DNA of 64,000 nucleotides from an uncultured delta proteobacterium. GTDB lineage: Bacteria; Desulfobacterota; Binatia; DP-6. A program made the position numbers and the translations under genes. The DNA is taken from the NCBI GenBank assembly GCA_963815115.1, contig CAWFFN010000005.1:224001-288000 (forward strand), in the 5' to 3' direction. Positions 648 through 56,733 of the stretch are shown here, piece after piece. Under the pieces are notes generated by a model that was not told where the DNA came from, did no database searches, and worked only from the letters and a program-made list of their open reading frames with translations. How positions within the stretch are numbered: position 1 is the stretch's first letter; each line of letters begins with the position of its first letter.

Positions 648-1577
648 TCGTGCCCGGGCGGCCCGCGGCCAGCGATGAGCCGGCGCTGGAGGTCCGCCCG
701 CAAGGCGACAAGCACTGGTCGGCGTATGCCAGCCAGCGGGCTCCAGTACGACTCCAACGTCGCGCTCGATCCGAGCGGCCAGCGGCTCCCCGGGAGTCCC
801 GCCAATCCGGCGGACGGCGCCGCAACCTTCGGAGCGGGGGGCCGATACGACTTCGTCGACAGCCCGCGCTGGCAGGCGGCTCTGGAGTACGACTTCTACC
901 AGACGGCCCACTTCCACCTGCACGACTTCAACCTGCGCTCGAACCGGGTGGCCGGCACCGCGGGCTACTCGCTGGTGCCCGACCTCTGGACGGGCGTCCA
1001 GGCCGGCTACCAGCACTACGTCCTCGGCACCGACGCCTACTCGGGGGCGCCGTTCGTGACGCCGTTCGTCTCCCTGGTACAGGGCGACTGGGGTCTCACC
1101 CAGCTCGTGTACGAGCACGCCCAGGTCACCTATCTGAGCCAGCCGTTCGAGAACGAGCGCGACGGTCCGACCGACACGGCGAGTCTCAGCCAGACGCTGT
1201 ACTGGGGATCGCGCTACTTCACGATCGGCTACGAGTTCGGCTCCGAACGTCCGCAGTCGCAGTCCTTCGTGGGCACCGCCTATCGCGAGCGCTACCACCA
1301 GGTCGGGGTCGGCGTCGGCTTCTCGCCGGGCTGGCGCACGACGGTCGACCTCTCCTACCTCTTCCGCTACGAGAACTACCCGGAGCCGAACAGCGCGGTG
1401 GACTTCGGCACGAACCGGCAGGACACCGTCAACCAGTTCTCGGTCCGACTCCGGCGTCCGATCACCGCGTACCTCAGCGCCGGATTGGCGTACTATGGCA
1501 CCTTCGACGACTCGAACATCGCGATCTACCAGTACCGCCGCAACATCGTGTCGGCAGAGGTACGCCTTGCCTTCTGA
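622..1577 (+). CDS. Outer-membrane beta-barrel protein (DUF560/Slam-like), two apparent +1 indels near 646 and 734
   Basis: GLQYDSNV motif, alternating aromatic beta-strands and a C-terminal Phe (VRLAF). A signal-like N-terminus MALAALTL/IVPGRPAAS lies in neighbouring frames. Confidence 0.7.
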
Positions 1578-2400
1578 TCCCGCGCGCAGCGCACCCCGGT
1601 CTCGGCGAGCGACGATCCTGGCCGCGCTCGCTCTCATCGCGGCCGCCGCGACGACCGTGCGGTCACAGGAGCGTGTCGGGTCGGTCGCCGGGCTCGAGGG
1701 GCAGGCCGAGGTGCTGCATTCCGGCGCGAGCGACTGGAGCCCGCTGGCCGTGGGCGATCCGGTCCTCCTCGGCGACCAGCTGCGCACGCGGCCCGACTCG
1801 AAGGTCCAGGTCACGCTGCGCGAGGACTCGGTCCTCACCCTGGCGCCCGGCTCGCAGCTGGCGATCACGGAGCAGCTCGTCGCGCCCGCCGCCGTGTCGC
1901 GCTTCCAGCTGCTCCTCGGCACCATCAAGGCCGCCGTCACCGAGCGCTACTCGGAGCCGAACGCGCGCTTCGAGGTCGAGACCCCGACGGCGATCGCGGG
2001 GGTGCGCGGCACGAGCTTCCTCGCCTCCTACGACCCTGCGCAGCAGGAGACCCTCGTCGTCGGCCTCACCAGCCTGACCCGCGTTCGCGCGCTCGTGGAC
2101 ACGCGAGGTGCCGCAGAGGTCGATCTCGGCCCCGGCATCGCCACCCGGGTGCGCCGCGGAGCCCGTCCGCTCGCGCCTGCCCCGCTCCCGGAGGATCAGC
2201 TCCGGTCGCTCCAGAGAGCGACCGAGCTCGGAGGCCCCGCTGCGGGCGGGGGCGCGAACCGACTCGACGCGCGCCGTCCGCAGCGCCCGGGCGAGCGTGC
2301 GATGTCCACGGAGGAGCAGGCGGTGGATCAGCCGCTGTTCGTCCCCGGAGGCTCGAAGCCGCCCCCGCCACCTCCGCCCGTCCCGAGGGGCGGGCGCTGA
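1567..2400 (+). CDS. FecR-domain periplasmic protein
   Basis: Signal peptide, then LGDQLRTRPDSKVQV..DSVLTLAPGSQL and FEVETPTAIAGVRGTSF, the FecR signature. Pro-rich tail. Start (TTG) approximate. Confidence 0.85.
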   Translation: MPSDPARSAPRSRRATILAALALIAAAATTVRSQERVGSVAGLEGQAEVLHSGASDWSPLAVGDPVLLGDQLRTRPDSKVQVTLREDSVLTLAPGSQLAITEQLVAPAAVSRFQLLLGTIKAAVTERYSEPNARFEVETPTAIAGVRGTSFLASYDPAQQETLVVGLTSLTRVRALVDTRGAAEVDLGPGIATRVRRGARPLAPAPLPEDQLRSLQRATELGGPAAGGGANRLDARRPQRPGERAMSTEEQAVDQPLFVPGGSKPPPPPPPVPRGGR

Positions 2401-2418
2401 CGCCGGCGCGAGCGTCGT

Positions 2419-4431
2419 GTGCGCGCACCCAGGCTCGGGGTCACTGCGGTCTGCACCGCGATCGCGATCGCGGTCGCGGCCGTCCGGCTGCTGGCGCCCG
2501 TGCCGCTCGAGGTCCTCGATCGCAAGTTTCTCGACTTCCGCCACCTGATCCGCGGGCGCGTCACCGCGAGCGACCGCGTCGTGATCGTCGCCATCGACGA
2601 GCCCAGCCTCGCGCGATTCGGCCGCTGGCCCTGGCCGCGGGCGCGGCTGGCAGAGCTGATCGACCGGCTGGACGCCGCCGGGGTCGCGGCCATCGGCCTC
2701 GACGTGGTCCTCGATCAGCCGGTCACGGCGATCGATCGGCGAGACCTGGAGGCCGCGCTCGATGCGGATCCGCAGCGGCCGGCCGCGGCGCTCCGCGACG
2801 TGGTGCGAGCCGAGCTCGACGACGACGTGCGGCTCGCGGCCGCCCTGCAACGCAGCGGACGCGTGGTGCTGGCGCATTTCTACGAGTTCGGCGGCGCAGC
2901 GACGCCCGAGCTGACCCGGGCGACCGCAGGGCTGCCCGAGCTGACCGTGCTCGCGGTCGCCGGGACGAGACTCGCCGGCGTTCCGGGACCTCCCGAGGCG
3001 ACCCGCGCGCGTCTGCCGGTCGCGCCGCTCGTGGCGGCGGCGGCGGGCACCGGTCACATCAACTTCGCCCCCGATCCGGACGGGATCTACCGCCGCCTGC
3101 CGATCGCCGTTCGCGTCGGCGACCGGCTGATCCCGTCGCTCGCCCTCGAGCTGCTCCGCGTCTCGGACAGCGCCGCCGCCAGCGTCACCGTGGCGCCGGA
3201 AGGCATCCGGACGGCGCGGGCGGGGCCGCTCGAGTTGCCCGTGGACGGTGCGGGGCAGCTCTGGCTCGACTTTCTCGGTCCGCCGCGAACGGTCACGACG
3301 GTCGGCGCGGGCGAGGTGCTCACCGGCCAGGTGCCCGCCGGCCAGCTCGCCGGCCGCATCGCGCTGATCGGCTTCACGGCGGCGGGCTTCGACGAGGTGT
3401 CGACGCCCTTTGCCGCCGTCGTGCCCGGCGTCGAGCTCCAGGCGACCGTCCTCGACAACGTGCTCCTCGGAAGGTCACTGCGCCATCCGTGGTGGCTCGT
3501 GCCTGCCGAGGCGCTGGTGATCCTCATGATCGGCCTGGTGGTCGGGCCCGCGCTCCGCTGGCTGCGCGGCGGCTGGGGAACCGCGGCCGCGCTGCTGCTC
3601 GCGCTGGTCTACTTCGCGGTCACGCAGGTGCTCTTCACGCGCGCGGGGCTCGCGCTCGGCGGTCTCTACCCGCTCGTCGCGCTGGTCCTCTGCATGGCGG
3701 GCGGCGCGGCCTACCTCTCGGTCGTGGAGGAGGGGGAGAAGCGGAAGATCCGCGCCGCGTTCCGGCAGTACGTGAACCCCGAGATCGCCGATCTCATCGC
3801 GAGCGTCCCATCGCACCTGCGTCTCGGCGGCGAGCGGCGGCCCATCAGCGTGCTGTTCTCGGACATCCGGGGATTCTCGAGCATCGCCGAGCATCTGCCG
3901 CCCGAGACGCTCGGCGAGATGCTCGGCGAGTACCTCGAGGCGATGACCGACGTCGTGTTCGCGCACGGCGGCCTCCTCGACAAGTACATCGGCGACGCCG
4001 TCATGGCGTTCTGGGGCGCGCCGGCACCGGCCGAGGACCACGCCGCCCGCTGCTGCCGGGCGGCACTCGACATGATGGCCGCGCTCGAGCGCCTGAACCA
4101 GCGCTGGGCCGATGCGGGGCTGCCGCGTCTCGGGATCCGCATCGGCATCAGCTCGGGAGACGCCATCGTCGGCAACTTCGGCTCCTCCCGCCGCTTCAGC
4201 TACACGGCGGTAGGCGACACGGTAAACCTGGGCTCTCGTCTCGAGCGGCTGAACGAGGAATTCGGGACCGACGTGCTGATCTCCGACGACACCCATGCCG
4301 AGATCGGCGAGGAGTTCGTCTGCCGCGAGGTCGGTCGCACGGCCGTCAAGGGGAGAACCCAGTTGACCACCGTCTACGAGCTGGTCGGACGGCGCTGCGA
4401 TGCGCCCGCGGCCGGCTCGGGATCCGGCTAG
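2419..4431 (+). CDS. CHASE2-domain adenylate cyclase (class III)
   Basis: VVIVAIDEPSLARFGRWPWPR (CHASE2), three TM helices, then VLFSDIRGFS, LDKYIGDAVMAFWGAP and YTAVGDTVNLGSRLE. Confidence 0.95.
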   Translation: MRAPRLGVTAVCTAIAIAVAAVRLLAPVPLEVLDRKFLDFRHLIRGRVTASDRVVIVAIDEPSLARFGRWPWPRARLAELIDRLDAAGVAAIGLDVVLDQPVTAIDRRDLEAALDADPQRPAAALRDVVRAELDDDVRLAAALQRSGRVVLAHFYEFGGAATPELTRATAGLPELTVLAVAGTRLAGVPGPPEATRARLPVAPLVAAAAGTGHINFAPDPDGIYRRLPIAVRVGDRLIPSLALELLRVSDSAAASVTVAPEGIRTARAGPLELPVDGAGQLWLDFLGPPRTVTTVGAGEVLTGQVPAGQLAGRIALIGFTAAGFDEVSTPFAAVVPGVELQATVLDNVLLGRSLRHPWWLVPAEALVILMIGLVVGPALRWLRGGWGTAAALLLALVYFAVTQVLFTRAGLALGGLYPLVALVLCMAGGAAYLSVVEEGEKRKIRAAFRQYVNPEIADLIASVPSHLRLGGERRPISVLFSDIRGFSSIAEHLPPETLGEMLGEYLEAMTDVVFAHGGLLDKYIGDAVMAFWGAPAPAEDHAARCCRAALDMMAALERLNQRWADAGLPRLGIRIGISSGDAIVGNFGSSRRFSYTAVGDTVNLGSRLERLNEEFGTDVLISDDTHAEIGEEFVCREVGRTAVKGRTQLTTVYELVGRRCDAPAAGSGSG

Positions 4432-53583: not shown

Positions 53584-53832
53584 ATGAAGCAGAACGCGAA
53601 GTCGAGCATCACGCTCCCACCGAGCGAGCTCCGCCTGGTGACGACCCTGAAGGAGCGCCTGGGACTGAAGAGCAACGTCGACGTGGTACGCCGTGGGTTG
53701 CGCCTCCTGCGCGAGGACACCGATCGTCGCGCGTTGCGCGACGCGTACCGCAAGGCGTCACGCGCCACCCGGGCGGGGCTGATGGTCGAACTCGAGGCCC
53801 TCGACCACCTCGGCGACGAGGGGCTCGAGTGA
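53584..53832 (+). CDS. Ribbon-helix-helix antitoxin
   Basis: SSITLP...SNVDVVRRGLRLL, acidic tail, GTGA overlap with the toxin gene. Confidence 0.8.
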   Translation: MKQNAKSSITLPPSELRLVTTLKERLGLKSNVDVVRRGLRLLREDTDRRALRDAYRKASRATRAGLMVELEALDHLGDEGLE

Positions 53833-54176
53833 CCCTCCCGGTCTCCACCGGCGTTCTGTACGCAGCAGATCTGAATCCGGCTCGCGGCACCGAGGCGGGA
53901 AAGGTACGGCCCGTCCTCGTCGTGCAGACGGATCTTCTCAACGTCGCAGCGCACCCCTCGACCGTCGTCCTGCCCTGCACGACCCGGCTCACTGGGGAAA
54001 GCCTACTTCGCGTGGTGCTCCCACGAGGTATTGCCGGCAACCGAGCGGAGTGCGAGGTGATGATCGACCAGGTGCGTGCAGTGGACAATCGCCGGCTCCG
54101 GAGGGCCCTCGGGAAAGTCCCCGCCCTCGTCCTGAGCGAGGTTCGGGAGAAGCTGCGCCGGCTGCTCGACCTGTAG
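53829..54176 (+). CDS. mazF: MazF/PemK family toxin
   Basis: ADLNPARGTEAGKVRPVLVVQ, VVLPCTT, DQVRAVD..RL. Confidence 0.93.
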   Translation: MTLPVSTGVLYAADLNPARGTEAGKVRPVLVVQTDLLNVAAHPSTVVLPCTTRLTGESLLRVVLPRGIAGNRAECEVMIDQVRAVDNRRLRRALGKVPALVLSEVREKLRRLLDL

Positions 54177-54314: not shown

Positions 54315-54836
54315 TCAGACCAGCAGATTCCGCTGCTCGCCGGTGCCGGCGCGCTCGTGCGCCAGGAGCCAGCGCTTGCGGTGCACGCCCCCGGCGTAGC
54401 CCGACAGCCGTCCGTCGGACGCGATGACGCGGTGGCAGGGGACCGCGATGGCGATGGGATTGGCGCCGTTCGCTGCGCCGACCGCGCGGGCGGCGGTGGG
54501 GTCGCCGATCCGGCGGGCGAGCGTCAGGTAGGAGATGGTCTCGCCGGCCGGGATCTCGCGCAGGGCATCCCACACCCGGCGCTGGAACGGTGTCCCGCCG
54601 GCATCGAGGGGGATGGCGTCGAGCGCGTGCAGGTCGCCCGCGAAGTATGCCGCGAGCCGCCCGCACACGCCGGCGGGGTCGCGGGGACGGAACTCGAGCG
54701 CGCCGAAGCGTTGCGCCAGCAGGGGATGGCGATGCGGCCAGCGCTCGCGGAACTCGAGCGCGCACACGGCTCCGGCGCGCATGGCGACCATGATCTTGCC
54801 GATGGGAGACGGAAACTCCGCCAAGTCGAGCGTCAT
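54315..54836 (-). CDS. ogt: Methylated-DNA--protein-cysteine methyltransferase
   Basis: SPIG, GTPFQRRVWDALREIPAGETISY, RAVGAANGANP, PCHRV. Confidence 0.95.
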   Translation of the reverse strand: MTLDLAEFPSPIGKIMVAMRAGAVCALEFRERWPHRHPLLAQRFGALEFRPRDPAGVCGRLAAYFAGDLHALDAIPLDAGGTPFQRRVWDALREIPAGETISYLTLARRIGDPTAARAVGAANGANPIAIAVPCHRVIASDGRLSGYAGGVHRKRWLLAHERAGTGEQRNLLV

Positions 54837-54871
54837 TCTTCCTCCGTTGCCGGTCGAGCCGGCCTGGTCCG

Positions 54872-55441
54872 TCAGTCGATCATCCCGGACCGGCTCGCGA
54901 TCGCATGCACGCGAAAGAGCCGCTCCGGGGTCCGCCCCGGCATCACGAGCGGCGCGGCGCGGCGAAACCGCACCGCGAGACCGCCCGCGCTGCCGCGCAC
55001 CGCGCCGCTCACGAGAATCTCTCCGGCGAGCGCCCGCCCGGCGATGCGCGCCGCGACGTTGACGTCGTGGCCGATGAGGTCGCCGTCGCGCGCGCGAGCC
55101 GAGCCGTCGTGGATCCCGATGCGCAGCGACACGCGGCGCGCCGCGCGTTGCATCTCGAGCGCGGCCCGCAGCGCGGGTGCCGGCGTGGAGAAGACGGCCA
55201 TGATGCCGTCGCCGAGGCGCTTCAGGATGCGACCCGAGTGGGTCCGGATGGCGGGCAGGACCGCGGCGTCGTGCTGCCGTACCAGGCGGAGCGCCGCCCG
55301 GTCGCCACGCTCGGCGACGCACGCCGTGAAGCCCGCGATGTCGGTGAAGAGCACCGTGAGGCGGCCGCGGCGGGGCAGGCGGACGGGGAAAAGCGTCGCC
55401 AGCCACTCGATGCCGGCGATGGGGTCGACCAGGGTATCCAT
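54872..55441 (-). CDS. Stand-alone class III adenylate/guanylate cyclase domain protein
   Basis: VLFTDIAGFT, KRLGDGIMAVF, RIGIH.G, DLIGHDVNVAARI; GGAGG RBS. Confidence 0.9.
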   Translation of the reverse strand: MDTLVDPIAGIEWLATLFPVRLPRRGRLTVLFTDIAGFTACVAERGDRAALRLVRQHDAAVLPAIRTHSGRILKRLGDGIMAVFSTPAPALRAALEMQRAARRVSLRIGIHDGSARARDGDLIGHDVNVAARIAGRALAGEILVSGAVRGSAGGLAVRFRRAAPLVMPGRTPERLFRVHAIASRSGMID

Positions 55442-55463
55442 CGGGCCTGTCCTCCGACCCTAC

Positions 55464-55530
55464 GACACCCGGGGATGGCAGAACGTGAAATGGCGCCGGT
55501 GAATTTCACGTTCGATTCGGGCGGGGTGTT
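55464..55530. promoter_or_regulatory. Back-to-back ECF-type promoters ATTTCACGTTC-N10-GGGTGT on both strands
   Basis: Perfect 11-bp inverted repeat at 55481-55491 / 55503-55513. Each arm is followed outward by exactly 10 nt and GGGTGT(C/T). Confidence 0.75.
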
Positions 55531-55542
55531 AAAGGAGCGGGG

Positions 55543-56059
55543 ATGAGTCCGCCTTCCGCCTCGCTGGCCGAGCTCACGACGCGCCATCGCAACGAGATCG
55601 TGGCGTATCTCGTCCGCATGCTGGGCGACCGCCAGGAGGCCGAGGACGCCTGTCAGGACGCGTTCCTGCGCGCGCACCGGGCCCTCGCCCGCCTCGGGCC
55701 GGGCGCCAACTCGCGTGCCTGGCTCTATCGAATCGCGACCCGGAGCGCCCTGAACGCCCTGCGCCGCCGCTCGCGACGAGCGGCCCGGGCGGCGGACGTC
55801 GATCCCGACGCGTTGCCGGCGAACCCCGGCCCGACACCCGAGCAGCGCGAGCAGCTGCTCGCGCTCCACCGGGCGGTCGATCGGCTGCCCCCGCGCCAGC
55901 GGGCGGCGCTGATGCTCCGGCAGTTCCAGGGGCTCGGGTACGCCGAGGTCGCCGCCACGCTCGGCGGTACCGAGCAGAGCGCGCGTGCCAACGTCTATCA
56001 GGCGCTGAAGAAGTATCCGGGCGTCCCTGGGTGACGCGCAGGAGGTATCACGACCATGA
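55543..56059 (+). CDS. ECF RNA polymerase sigma factor (stops at 56034 as sequenced; at 56059 if one extra T at 56014 is removed)
   Basis: Sigma2 AEDACQDAFLRA..WLYRIA; sigma4 LPPRQRAALMLRQFQGLGYAEVAATLG. The corrected end KKIRASLGDAQEVSRP gives an ATGA overlap with the next gene. Confidence 0.92.
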
Positions 56060-56733
56060 CCACGCACGACGACGAGCTGATCGGCATGCTGCTCGGCGAC
56101 CACCGGCGGTCGGCCGACCTGGCGAGCTGGCTCGCGACGCCGGAAGGGCGCCACGAGCTGGCGGCTTACCGCCGGACGCTCGGAGGACTCGAGCGGCTCT
56201 ACGGGGACGTCCTCGGCCGGCGCACCGTCTACTACACTGCCGTCCAGGCGCCGATCGGCCGGGTGTTCGTGGCAGTGAGCGACGGGGGGCTGGTGCGCGT
56301 CTCGTTCCGGAGCAACGAGGCCGCGTTCGTGCACGACCTCCGGCACCAGCTCGATGCGGACGTCGTGCGCTCGCCGGAGCGCACCGCGGACGTCGTGCAC
56401 CAGCTACGGGCCTACTTCACCGGCGAGCGGCGGCGCTTCGACATGCGTCTCGACCTGCGACACGTCACTCCCTTCCAGCGCCGCGTGCTCCTGGCGGCGG
56501 CGCGCGTGCCGGCCGGGAAGCTCGTCTCCTACGGCGAGATCGCACGGCGCATCGGGGAGCCCCGGGGCAGCCGGGCGGTCGGCCAGGCGCTCGGGCACAA
56601 CCCGATCCCCATCGTGATCCCGTGCCATCGGGTGGTGGCTGCAGGCGGACGCATCGGTGGATACACCGGCGGTCTCGCCATCAAGCGCAAGCTGCTGCGG
56701 CTCGAAGGGTCGCTCGCGGCGGTTGCGGGTTGA
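56056..56733 (+). CDS. O6-alkylguanine DNA alkyltransferase with anti-sigma-like N-terminal extension
   Basis: About 55-aa helical extension, then APIG, TPFQRRVL, SYGEIA, RAVGQALGHNP, PCHRVV. Confidence 0.9.
   Translation: MTTHDDELIGMLLGDHRRSADLASWLATPEGRHELAAYRRTLGGLERLYGDVLGRRTVYYTAVQAPIGRVFVAVSDGGLVRVSFRSNEAAFVHDLRHQLDADVVRSPERTADVVHQLRAYFTGERRRFDMRLDLRHVTPFQRRVLLAAARVPAGKLVSYGEIARRIGEPRGSRAVGQALGHNPIPIVIPCHRVVAAGGRIGGYTGGLAIKRKLLRLEGSLAAVAG

Follow-up and report, generated by a model that had tools for sequence, protein, structure and literature searches.

Known triggers for the release of ECF sigma factors are mostly envelope signals, changes in redox state and proteolytic cascades, and the class I zinc-binding anti-sigma factors include RsrA, ChrR and RslA. 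Both the Ada adaptive response of E. coli and the mycobacterial AdaA-AlkA/Ogt operon rely on a protein that undergoes irreversible methylation during DNA repair and switches on alkylation repair genes; methylation of a zinc-bound Cys in the N-terminal domain makes Ada a transcription activator. Pairs of ECF sigma and ogt genes have also been catalogued, as the preliminary description of the locus reported here had suspected: the group ECF122 (Casas-Pastor et al. 2021, as given in the review PMC8999054) has a conserved neighbouring gene for a 6-O-methylguanine DNA methyltransferase. The review's listing of this group contains no cognate anti-sigma factor, gives the mechanism as unknown and names an example from Cellulomonas. 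ECF122 was not mentioned in the main text of PMC7826278, the supplement of which may describe the Ogt partner in more detail. Literature searches found no paper joining anti-sigma, ECF and O6-methylguanine, the ECF122 remark being the one relevant match, and none uniting an ECF sigma factor, alkylation damage and an anti-sigma factor; the word sigma was absent from the alkyltransferase family review PMC10779285.

Organisation and conservation of the locus

The window is the whole 64,000 nt stretch of DNA that was analysed, which is from an uncultured delta proteobacterium. All four genes that had been placed in it by the preliminary description were found at their positions, in two divergent units. 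The first unit starts with an ECF sigma gene (55,543 bp–56,034 bp, + strand), the 163 aa product of which matched Sigma70_r2 (E 9.4e-18), Sigma70_r4_2 (E 1.2e-14) and TIGR02937 (87.8 bits, the cut-off being 42.9) and contained regions 2 and 4 only, as is characteristic of ECF (group 4) sigma factors, which measure about 160–200 aa. This gene is followed on the same strand by one encoding a 225 aa fusion protein (56,056 bp–56,733 bp), made up of an N-terminal extension of residues 1–57 (56,056 bp–56,226 bp) and an alkyltransferase body (56,227 bp–56,733 bp). The body comprised an N lobe (PF02870, residues 58–134, E 6.9e-09) and a C lobe (PF01035, residues 139–218, E 2.4e-33), and the fusion matched TIGR00589 above the family cut-off. 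The two-lobe Ogt/AGT fold, the PCHRV site and the DNA-binding helix-turn-helix residues were all present; the Cys of the PCHRV motif was residue 190 (codon 56,623 bp–56,625 bp), and Y159, R173, N182, C190, H191, R192 and E217 were invariant in 72 fusion sequences. An AlphaFold model of the fusion had a pLDDT of 87. The Ada_Zn_binding domain (PF02805) was not found on the fusion of the window in a Pfam search. The Pfam domains thus agreed with the initial reading of an ECF sigma gene followed by an alkyltransferase with an intact PCHRV site and an extra N-terminus, and the peptide DELIGMLLGD..LASWLATPEGRHELAAYRRTLGGL was present in the fusion translation.

The divergent unit, on the - strand, has as its first gene a class III cyclase consisting of the catalytic domain alone (54,872 bp–55,441 bp, 189 aa, PF00211, E 8.8e-12) and as its second gene ogt1 (54,315 bp–54,836 bp, 173 aa), which matched PF01035 (E 1.2e-36) and NCBIfam PRK10286 (E 1.4e-44). 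Alignment with the fusion showed ogt1 to be without the N-terminal extension; the unit is therefore, as first described, a bare cyclase with a second, plain Ogt. Cyclase residues D34, K74, D78, D121, N128 and R132 were invariant in 23 sequences, and we take these to be the two metal-binding Asp, the substrate Lys/Asp and the transition-state Asn/Arg.

The gene order of the window was common to most of 47 related loci, and the four-gene arrangement is far beyond chance. Many of the 47 loci are near-duplicates, so the locus counts given here are not independent. In 45 of the 47, the fusion was immediately preceded by a sigma gene in the same orientation; of the other two, L028 had no room upstream of the fusion for a sigma gene and L037 carried a Macro-domain gene in its place. 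The sigma stop codon and the fusion start codon shared a 4 nt overlap in 31 of the 45 sigma-adjacent loci. The cyclase was divergent from sigma in 32/47 loci and absent in four for which 300 nt or more of sequence was available upstream. In 21/47 loci, ogt1 had a relative (>50% identity) that either followed the cyclase or lay immediately upstream; it was missing from L034 despite 1.6 kb of sequence.

When the window was aligned at the DNA level with the three loci closest to it (L008, L009 and L010), one extra T was revealed at 56,014 bp in its sigma gene. Downstream of K156 the reading frame of sigma is shifted by this T, so that the last six residues are altered. With the T removed, the sigma tail reads ...QALKKIRASLG..., as it does in the relatives (C-terminal tails of 45 were compared), and the sigma stop codon overlaps the fusion ATG, an overlap that the extra T abolishes in the window. 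The ATGA overlap predicted on removal of this T was thus confirmed by both the alignment and the tails of the relatives. Contigs of four public runs contained no matching sequence across 56,014 bp, with at most 0.18 of the sampled words matched per DNA run, and no RNA run was among the matches listed. If the extra T is real, the window's copy of sigma may be impaired, because its C-terminus is frameshifted.

The N-terminal extension as a candidate anti-sigma domain

The extension had been proposed to be a zinc-less anti-sigma domain, and a profile comparison of residues 1–55 with zf-HC2/ASD families had been suggested. Neither Pfam nor hhalign yielded an anti-sigma signature. Residues 1–57 had no Pfam match at E ≤ 1, and zf-HC2 (PF13490) matched 0 of 72 family members at the same threshold. 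The HxxxCxxC zinc ligands were absent, the 57-residue extension having no Cys. With hhalign, the extension scored 3% against the anti-sigma domains of the window's own genome and 5% (E 0.007) against four zf-HC2 domains of related fusions (see below). An NCBIfam search of residues 1–57 gave nothing significant for anti-sigma, a PDB-sequence profile search gave nothing relevant, and a Foldseek search of the PDB with a model of the domain by itself (pLDDT 75) gave nothing at E ≤ 0.001. Three helices (residues 3–12, 20–26 and 29–50) were seen in the AlphaFold model, in which the fourth anti-sigma helix was not identified.

Each of the best eight non-self matches to the sigma profile among 400 other genomes of the phylum was followed by an Ogt-type gene. 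The fusions encoded by these genes (L062–L068 and L072) had a C-terminal Ada_Zn domain, and four of the eight began with HxxxCxxC. zf-HC2 matched three of these four (E ~1e-4), including one that exceeded the Pfam cut-off, and hhalign of the related zf-HC2 domains against the anti-sigma domains of the window's own genome scored 97%. When the isolated extension was compared by BLASTP with the HxxxCxxC domain of L065, the best match among a few hand-chosen candidates, the identity was 38% over 48 residues (E 6e-5). The alignment was colinear and placed S24, T28 and G31 of the extension at the zinc ligand positions. In a protein atlas, one cluster combined PF02870 with zf-HC2 (score 0.76), which is a lead only.

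The extension family matched 141 clusters and, among the matches listed, 120 of 120 were Ogt-type proteins or fragments. An exhaustive search with the extension profile returned 25 representatives, with another architecture only in two long repetitive proteins. A search with this profile gave no match in the 400 other genomes from the phylum that were covered, and it found only three loci in a species-representative genome collection.

A complex model of sigma with the extension gave an ipSAE of 0.78 in three runs, against 0.00 for the best of three controls. In a benchmark, 0.78 was reached by 116/157 solved complexes and 2/215 mismatched pairs, counts that are only roughly valid here because our own alignments were fed to the complex model. 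At least 77% of contacts agreed between runs, and the partner pLDDT was at least 79. The extension was placed in silico on region 4 and region 2, the modelled interface being formed by sigma residues 17–25 and 97–160 and by extension residues 5–15 and 37–53; the invariant extension residues I9, L13, D15, A37, Y38, L42, R47 and Y49 were contained in it. The modelling of sigma with its fusion that had been suggested at the outset therefore predicted binding, although the high score may reflect memory of solved sigma/anti-sigma complexes. The proposal of a zinc-less anti-sigma domain is thus supported by position and coupling, by the colinear zf-HC2 alignment and by the complex model with its controls, whereas profile methods did not recognise the domain. 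We read the extension as a degenerate domain of the class I anti-sigma type from which the zinc ligands have disappeared, and it is quite likely to have anti-sigma function.

Divergent motif and proposed alkylation response

A conserved motif, TTTCAC-N16-GTGTTA, was found upstream of sigma, and a second copy faced the cyclase operon. On the sigma side, the putative promoter, which would be autoregulated (55,503 bp–55,531 bp, + strand), consists of ATTTCAC (55,503 bp–55,509 bp), 16 nt and GTGTTA (55,526 bp–55,531 bp), with the sigma ATG 11 nt after GTGTTA. The putative promoter of the cyclase unit (55,461 bp–55,491 bp, - strand) consists of ATTTCAC (55,491 bp–55,485 bp), 16 nt and GTGTCGTA (55,468 bp–55,461 bp). 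Of 28 unique regions upstream of sigma, 27 had the motif ending no more than 25 nt from the ATG, compared to 15 of 5600 shuffles. Among 28 unique intergenic sequences, 23 carried TCAC-N17/18-GTY on the other strand. A similar motif, TTTCAC-N16-GxGTyA, preceded seven of the eight more distant sigma-Ogt pairs. Among relatives the -35 and -10 elements stood at a fixed distance from each other, while the two -35 cores were separated by anything from 3 to 40 nt, and loci without the cyclase (L006, L032 and L046) kept the sigma-side arm alone. An alternative parsing of the inverted repeat formed by the two arms as two interdigitated promoters, TGAAAT-N17-CGTTC, was dropped because the relatives have a conserved -10, GTGTTA, downstream of each arm. 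A strict motif scan of the 6.9 Mb genome gave seven matches, two of which were the copies at the locus, and none of the remainder was convincingly placed as a further target; a wider regulon can therefore not be claimed, and it is by its position that the motif is linked to sigma. We infer that the motif is the promoter of the ECF sigma factor. The initial suggestion that sigma drives both divergent units is supported, since the same conserved motif faces each of them, and on this comparison both are probably under its control.

The genes of this putative regulon indicate that it is concerned with alkylation. In one sub-clade (L011, L013, L015, L018 and L026) an AdaA-AraC-AlkA gene lies between the cyclase and ogt, and in L021 and L025 an AlkA part occupies this position. 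An AdaA-AraC-AlkA protein with Ada_Zn is also encoded elsewhere in the window's genome. The term 'Ada-independent', which had been applied to the response, is thus too strong, as an Ada-type gene is present in the same genome, in the cyclase-ogt operon of the sub-clade and, in the form of Ada_Zn, on the fusions of the nearest relatives.

The explanation that best covers these observations, to which we give an even chance as a whole, is that the fusion is an anti-sigma factor with an alkyltransferase as its sensor. The 225 aa protein would be a cytoplasmic anti-sigma factor, its first ~55 residues holding the sigma factor encoded just upstream via region 4 and region 2, and its sensor part would be a suicide O6-alkylguanine-DNA alkyltransferase. 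Transfer of an alkyl group from DNA onto Cys190 would irreversibly modify the fusion, which would then be destabilised and degraded, or change shape, so that sigma is freed. Free sigma would read the two back-to-back TTTCAC-N16-GTGTTA promoters, the one on its own side yielding more sigma and more of the alkyltransferase/anti-sigma protein, and the other yielding an adenylate-cyclase-type enzyme and, in the window's genome, a second, plain Ogt. As a self-inactivating repair enzyme bears the predicted sigma-holding domain, the fusion probably senses alkylation damage. That release occurs by alkylation of Cys190 is proposed tentatively, at somewhat less than an even chance, by analogy with alkylated alkyltransferases, which are described in PMC4605297 as destabilised and degraded. 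More tentative still is the possibility that one anti-sigma factor is consumed per O6-alkylguanine repaired, such that lesions are counted without an Ada-type activator and a cyclic-nucleotide signal is emitted as well. Counting would be stoichiometric because each repair irreversibly uses one anti-sigma factor and frees one sigma factor, and the cyclic-nucleotide signal is suggested because the adenylate cyclase is the best-conserved target besides the sigma operon.

The extension could instead bind sigma without the alkyltransferase being the switch, another route, for example general proteolysis, growth phase or a partner protein, bringing about the release. In that case the Ogt body would be cargo produced in fixed proportion with sigma, or be carried by sigma to RNA polymerase for repair near transcribed DNA. 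The binding model and the gene coupling are silent on the trigger, and the zinc ligands, which form a redox switch in some anti-sigma domains, are lost in the window's family. The input could also differ between families, because the related fusions have a second methyl acceptor, Ada_Zn, that is missing from the window's family. We nevertheless consider this explanation unlikely, as none of the catalytic residues of the Ogt body varies among 72 sequences, the extension was fused to Ogt and never to another sensor (among the matches listed and in the exhaustive profile search), the regulon includes alkylation repair genes, and the instability of alkylated alkyltransferases described in PMC4605297 offers a ready-made switch.

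It is improbable that the extension is only a helical cap serving the oligomerisation, DNA binding or stability of an Ogt whose gene is just a co-transcribed target of a sigma factor controlled through its own transcription. Such a cap would fit the failure of profile and fold searches to recognise an anti-sigma domain, the listing of ECF122 among sigma factors without a cognate anti-sigma factor (PMC8999054) and the occurrence of the L037 fusion without sigma. It is opposed by the colinearity with true HxxxCxxC domains of homologous fusions found behind homologous sigma genes, by the complex score (0.78 versus 0.00) with conserved residues in the interface, and by the frequency of the 4 nt overlap (31/45 loci), which is typical of sigma/anti-sigma pairs; moreover, the plain Ogt at the same locus works without a cap. 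Very improbable is a reading of the two arms, which in the window form a perfect 11 bp inverted repeat (GAACGTGAAAT / ATTTCACGTTC) adjoining the cyclase gene, as the operator of a dimeric factor such as a cyclic-nucleotide receptor, given that the gap between arms is variable, that each arm is a fixed 17–18 nt from the GTY on its own side, that the sigma-side arm alone is kept where the cyclase is absent, and that the half-site spacing is unlike that of the CRP-type consensus, a CRP-type operator being rejected on account of the variable spacing.

Comparison with known systems

Like ECF122, the locus has an ECF sigma gene with an adjoining Ogt gene, a likeness that concerns the gene neighbourhood. 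The sigma-Ogt pairing is already catalogued; the candidate anti-sigma domain that the window's methyltransferase itself bears is not part of the ECF122 listing in PMC8999054. If the alkyltransferase-sensor explanation is true, it would supply a mechanism for a group listed without an anti-sigma factor.

The related loci L062–L068 and L072, of zf-HC2-Ogt-Ada(Zn) or Ogt-Ada(Zn) type, encode sigma factors 36–43% identical to that of the window with an Ogt-type gene directly downstream, and the zf-HC2 type shares the ATGA overlap with the window's family. They differ in having the C-terminal Ada zinc domain and, in four cases, an intact HxxxCxxC, neither of which is found in the window's family; in that family, moreover, the segment leading from the extension to the Ogt N lobe is ~30 residues shorter. 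The divergent cyclase unit was not found in these eight loci by tblastn. The conservation of the cyclase in the window's family suggests that damage by alkylation is connected with signalling through cyclic nucleotides, a link so far unexplored.

The fusion resembles RsrA, ChrR and RslA in that its gene comes directly behind that of an ECF sigma factor and that it starts with a small helical domain, which is predicted to contact region 4 and region 2. Unlike in these proteins, the domain has no zinc ligands or Pfam match and three helices were seen in it, and the sensor is a DNA repair enzyme rather than a redox-active zinc site or a membrane/periplasmic domain. A soluble anti-sigma factor with its own irreversible alkylation as the input would, if true, represent a new input type. 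As in Ada, methylation would act as a stoichiometric signal that induces alkylation repair; unlike in Ada, the proposed output is sigma release, the acceptor would be the Cys of the O6-alkylguanine site and the fusion is without Ada_Zn. The locus would then represent a second, independent answer to the problem that Ada solves.

Gene content and conservation of the locus

Translation and domain searches returned the four genes of the preliminary description, with the same coordinates and quoted peptide. On the reverse strand these were ogt1, a plain alkyltransferase of 173 aa (54315–54836; PF01035, E 1.2e-36), and a stand-alone class III cyclase domain of 189 aa (54872–55441; PF00211, E 8.8e-12). 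On the forward strand, a 163 aa ECF sigma factor with Sigma70_r2 and r4_2 domains (55543–56034) was followed by the fusion, a 225 aa alkyltransferase (Ogt) with an N-terminal extension (56056–56733), which contained PF02870 at residues 58–134, PF01035 at residues 139–218 and a PCHRV motif with Cys190. The fusion's own AGGAGG sits 9 nt 5′ of its ATG. DNA comparison with three related loci (L008, L009 and L010) confirmed the surplus T that had been suspected at 56014 of the sigma gene. This T turns the sigma tail ...QALKKIRASLGG... into ...QALKKYPGVPG and a stop, and the ATGA overlap with the fusion is lost through it; it may have arisen in assembly or be a genuine mutation. The (L/I)RxxL sigma tail was present in 45/45 relatives. 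A small toxin-antitoxin pair (53584–54176, forward strand) separates the locus from the ABC transporter genes upstream; its first ORF (82 aa) had weak ribbon-helix-helix/ParD similarity (E 0.1–0.6) and the second, overlapping it by 4 nt, encoded a 115 aa PemK/MazF-like toxin (PF02452, E 1.2e-22).

The neighbourhood recurred among 47 related loci whose fusions were down to ~58% identical to that of the window. Metagenomes supplied 44 of these and species-representative genomes three, with genes located by tblastn, and many are near-identical, so that the counts overstate independence. In 45/47 loci the fusion was immediately preceded by the sigma gene in the same orientation. A 4 nt overlap of sigma stop and fusion start was seen in 31 of these, a 1 nt overlap in two, and a distance within 26 nt in most others. 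One of the two loci without a sigma call, L028, has only ~80 nt of upstream sequence. L037 (252–1598) was the sole locus at which the extended Ogt was not behind a sigma gene, the upstream slot being taken by a Macro-domain gene (PF01661, E 1.5e-42) that ends ~25 nt before it. The cyclase was divergent from sigma in 32/47 loci and absent from four (L006, L010, L032 and L050) whose upstream sequence extends for 300 nt or more; 11 loci were not judgeable. An ogt1-type gene lay beyond the cyclase, or at L010 in its place, in 21/47 loci. L034 encoded the cyclase alone and no ogt1-type gene despite 1.6 kb of sequence.

Of the genes in the divergent unit the cyclase was the most constant. Its D34, K74, D78, D121, N128 and R132 were invariant in 23/23 sequences. 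To these six we assign the class III cyclase roles in binding metal and substrate (adenine-type K/D) and in the transition state, and for this reason the enzyme looks active. In one sub-clade (L011, L013, L015, L018 and L026) a 495 aa AdaA(Zn)-AraC-AlkA gene (1364–2848, reverse strand, in L013) lay between the cyclase and ogt1, the divergent unit there being cyclase, adaA-alkA and ogt; at L021 and L025 the AlkA part alone occupied this position. The sigma gene was frameshifted in L004 and L030, and in L029 an in-frame stop stood in place of a conserved Trp. In a single 183 aa protein (P0139) the reading frame runs from the first ~97 sigma residues straight into the middle part of the extension. 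This junction and the three sigma defects may reflect misassembly or gene copies in decay.

The N-terminal extension and its probable relation to anti-sigma domains

At a threshold as lax as E ≤ 1, neither Pfam nor NCBIfam gave a match for residues 1–57 of the fusion. A search with residues 1–60 gave ten proteins of 224–231 aa that share the extension in alignment. Its profile matched 141 clusters, and 120/120 among the matches listed were Ogt-type proteins (~225 aa) or fragments thereof. When 1.84 billion representatives were searched exhaustively with the profile, 25 matched at E ≤ 0.001, with no ordinary anti-sigma factor among them; leaving out short ones, those examined or shared with the cluster search were Ogt-type or fragments, the exceptions being two long, repetitive-looking proteins with 8–9 matching stretches each. 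The extension is a genuine conserved domain, restricted to Ogt proteins. Its invariant residues include I9, L12, L13, G14, D15, L22, W25, L26, G31, R32, E34, A37, Y38, R39, L42, R47 and Y49. An AlphaFold2 model of the fusion (72 sequences; pLDDT 87.3, pTM 0.70) placed three helices (residues 3–12, 20–26 and 29–50) ahead of the Ogt fold, the catalytic and DNA-binding residues of which were invariant in 72/72 sequences. In one 326 aa relative (P0127) an insert of ~110 residues separates the extension from the Ogt N lobe; it contained no Pfam domain, and part of it resembles, by eye, region 3 of primary sigma factors.

Evidence on the proposal that the extension is a zinc-less anti-sigma domain pointed both ways. 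Against it, zf-HC2 matched 0/72 members of the extension family, hhalign of the extension against seven zf-HC2 domains of the window's genome gave 3%, and neither a profile search of PDB sequences with the extension nor a Foldseek search with the isolated domain found anything. A profile search of 400 other genomes of the phylum did not find the extension. In favour of the proposal, the eight best non-self matches in these 400 genomes to a sigma profile (L062–L068 and L072; 119–156 bits, 36–43% identity) were each followed by an Ogt-type gene. All eight of these Ogt proteins end in an Ada_Zn_binding domain, whereas the window's fusion has no Ada domain. Four (L063, L064, L065 and L067) start with an HxxxCxxC-bearing domain, so that an anti-sigma domain and a pair of methyl-acceptor domains make up a three-part fusion. 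Three of the four HxxxCxxC domains were matched by zf-HC2, one above Pfam's cut-off, and as a set they matched the anti-sigma domains of the window's genome at 97% (E 7e-11). At L063, L064 and L067 the Ogt start and the sigma stop share an ATGA, and the proposed start of the L065 Ogt is 20 nt inside the sigma frame.

Alignment of the window's fusion with the L065 protein was colinear over the whole length (E 2e-31), and the extension alone aligned with the L065 domain (E 6e-5, 38% over 48 residues), with S24, T28 and G31 in the positions of the His, Cys and Cys ligands. Comparison of the extension with the related zf-HC2 domains, profile against profile, gave a weak match in the same register (5%, E 0.007). 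Given the HxxxCxxC-Ogt partners of the sigma relatives and the colinear L065 alignment, we read the extension as probably derived, with loss of the zinc ligands, from the anti-sigma domain that these Ogt fusions carry.

Predicted complex, putative promoters and proposed regulation

Sigma binding by the extension, on which the preliminary description turned, was predicted when sigma (27-row alignment) was folded with residues 1–60 of the fusion (72-row alignment). The ipSAE was 0.78 in each of three runs and 0.00 for the best of three controls; the same mark was reached by 116/157 solved complexes and 2/215 mismatched pairs in a benchmark, counts which apply only roughly here because custom alignments were used. 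Contact agreement between runs was at least 77% and partner pLDDT at least 79. The predicted interface joins residues 5–15 and 37–53 of the extension to sigma residues 97–160 (region 4) and 17–25 (region 2), and takes in invariant residues of both partners; we take this layout to be that of class I anti-sigma complexes. The score may partly reflect the model's memory of solved sigma/anti-sigma complexes, that is, likeness rather than binding by this copy.

Most likely, sigma would be sequestered by the fusion until alkyl transfer onto Cys190 irreversibly inactivates the latter, upon which sigma would be set free to transcribe both its own operon and the divergent unit. Release is proposed because alkylated alkyltransferases are destabilised and degraded (PMC4605297). 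Less likely readings are that the alkyltransferase is cargo and not the switch, or that the extension serves the enzyme and not sigma.

The 101 nt intergenic region carries the inverted repeat GAACGTGAAAT ... ATTTCACGTTC, and comparison with relatives identified each arm as the putative -35 element of its own promoter: ATTTCAC is separated by 16 nt from GTGTTA towards sigma, and from GYGTYRYA towards the cyclase. TCAC-N17/18-GTY ended ≤25 nt from the sigma ATG in 27/28 unique upstream regions, compared to 15/5600 shuffles, and was present on the opposite strand in 23/28. The opposite-strand element was missing in L004, L006, L032, L046 and L050, of which L006, L032 and L050 had no cyclase match and L046 had upstream sequence too short to judge. 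At L010, which lacks the cyclase, this element points straight at ogt1. The same motif preceded 7/8 of the more distant sigma genes. As ECF sigma factors are usually autoregulated, we infer that the motif would be the promoter of this sigma. That the inverted repeat is instead an operator is argued against by the gap between the two -35 cores, which varies from 3 to 40 nt among relatives and so does not suit a dimeric operator.

In the window (55526–55545) and 26 relatives the sigma ATG is only 10–15 nt past the GTTA of the putative -10, a spacing that would leave the transcript with little or no leader; an AAGGAG-like stretch lies between the two. The strict motif occurred seven times in the 6.9-Mb genome, twice at this locus, and the genome-wide scan revealed no other convincing targets.

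Comparison with known systems

The term 'Ada-independent' was too strong, because an AdaA-AraC-AlkA-type gene is present on another contig of the same genome (G000:C7:153247-153441, locus L060; Ada_Zn_binding E 1.2e-30). A third, shorter Ogt-like match was found on contig C12. The pairing of sigma and Ogt is already catalogued, as had been guessed: a 2022 review (PMC8999054) places ECF122 among the sigma groups without a cognate anti-sigma factor and of unknown mechanism, and gives 6-O-methylguanine DNA methyltransferases as its conserved neighbour, citing Casas-Pastor et al. 2021. ECF122 is not mentioned in that paper's main text, to which the search was confined. Alkyltransferase fusions to endonuclease V and to a histone-like domain are described in a 2023 family review (PMC10779285), in which a term search did not find the word 'sigma'. 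No account of an alkyltransferase bearing an anti-sigma domain came up in full-text literature searches. What is new beyond the catalogued pairing is the proposal that Ogt itself supplies the absent anti-sigma factor, in a form with neither zinc nor an Ada domain, along with the paired promoters and a conserved cyclase.
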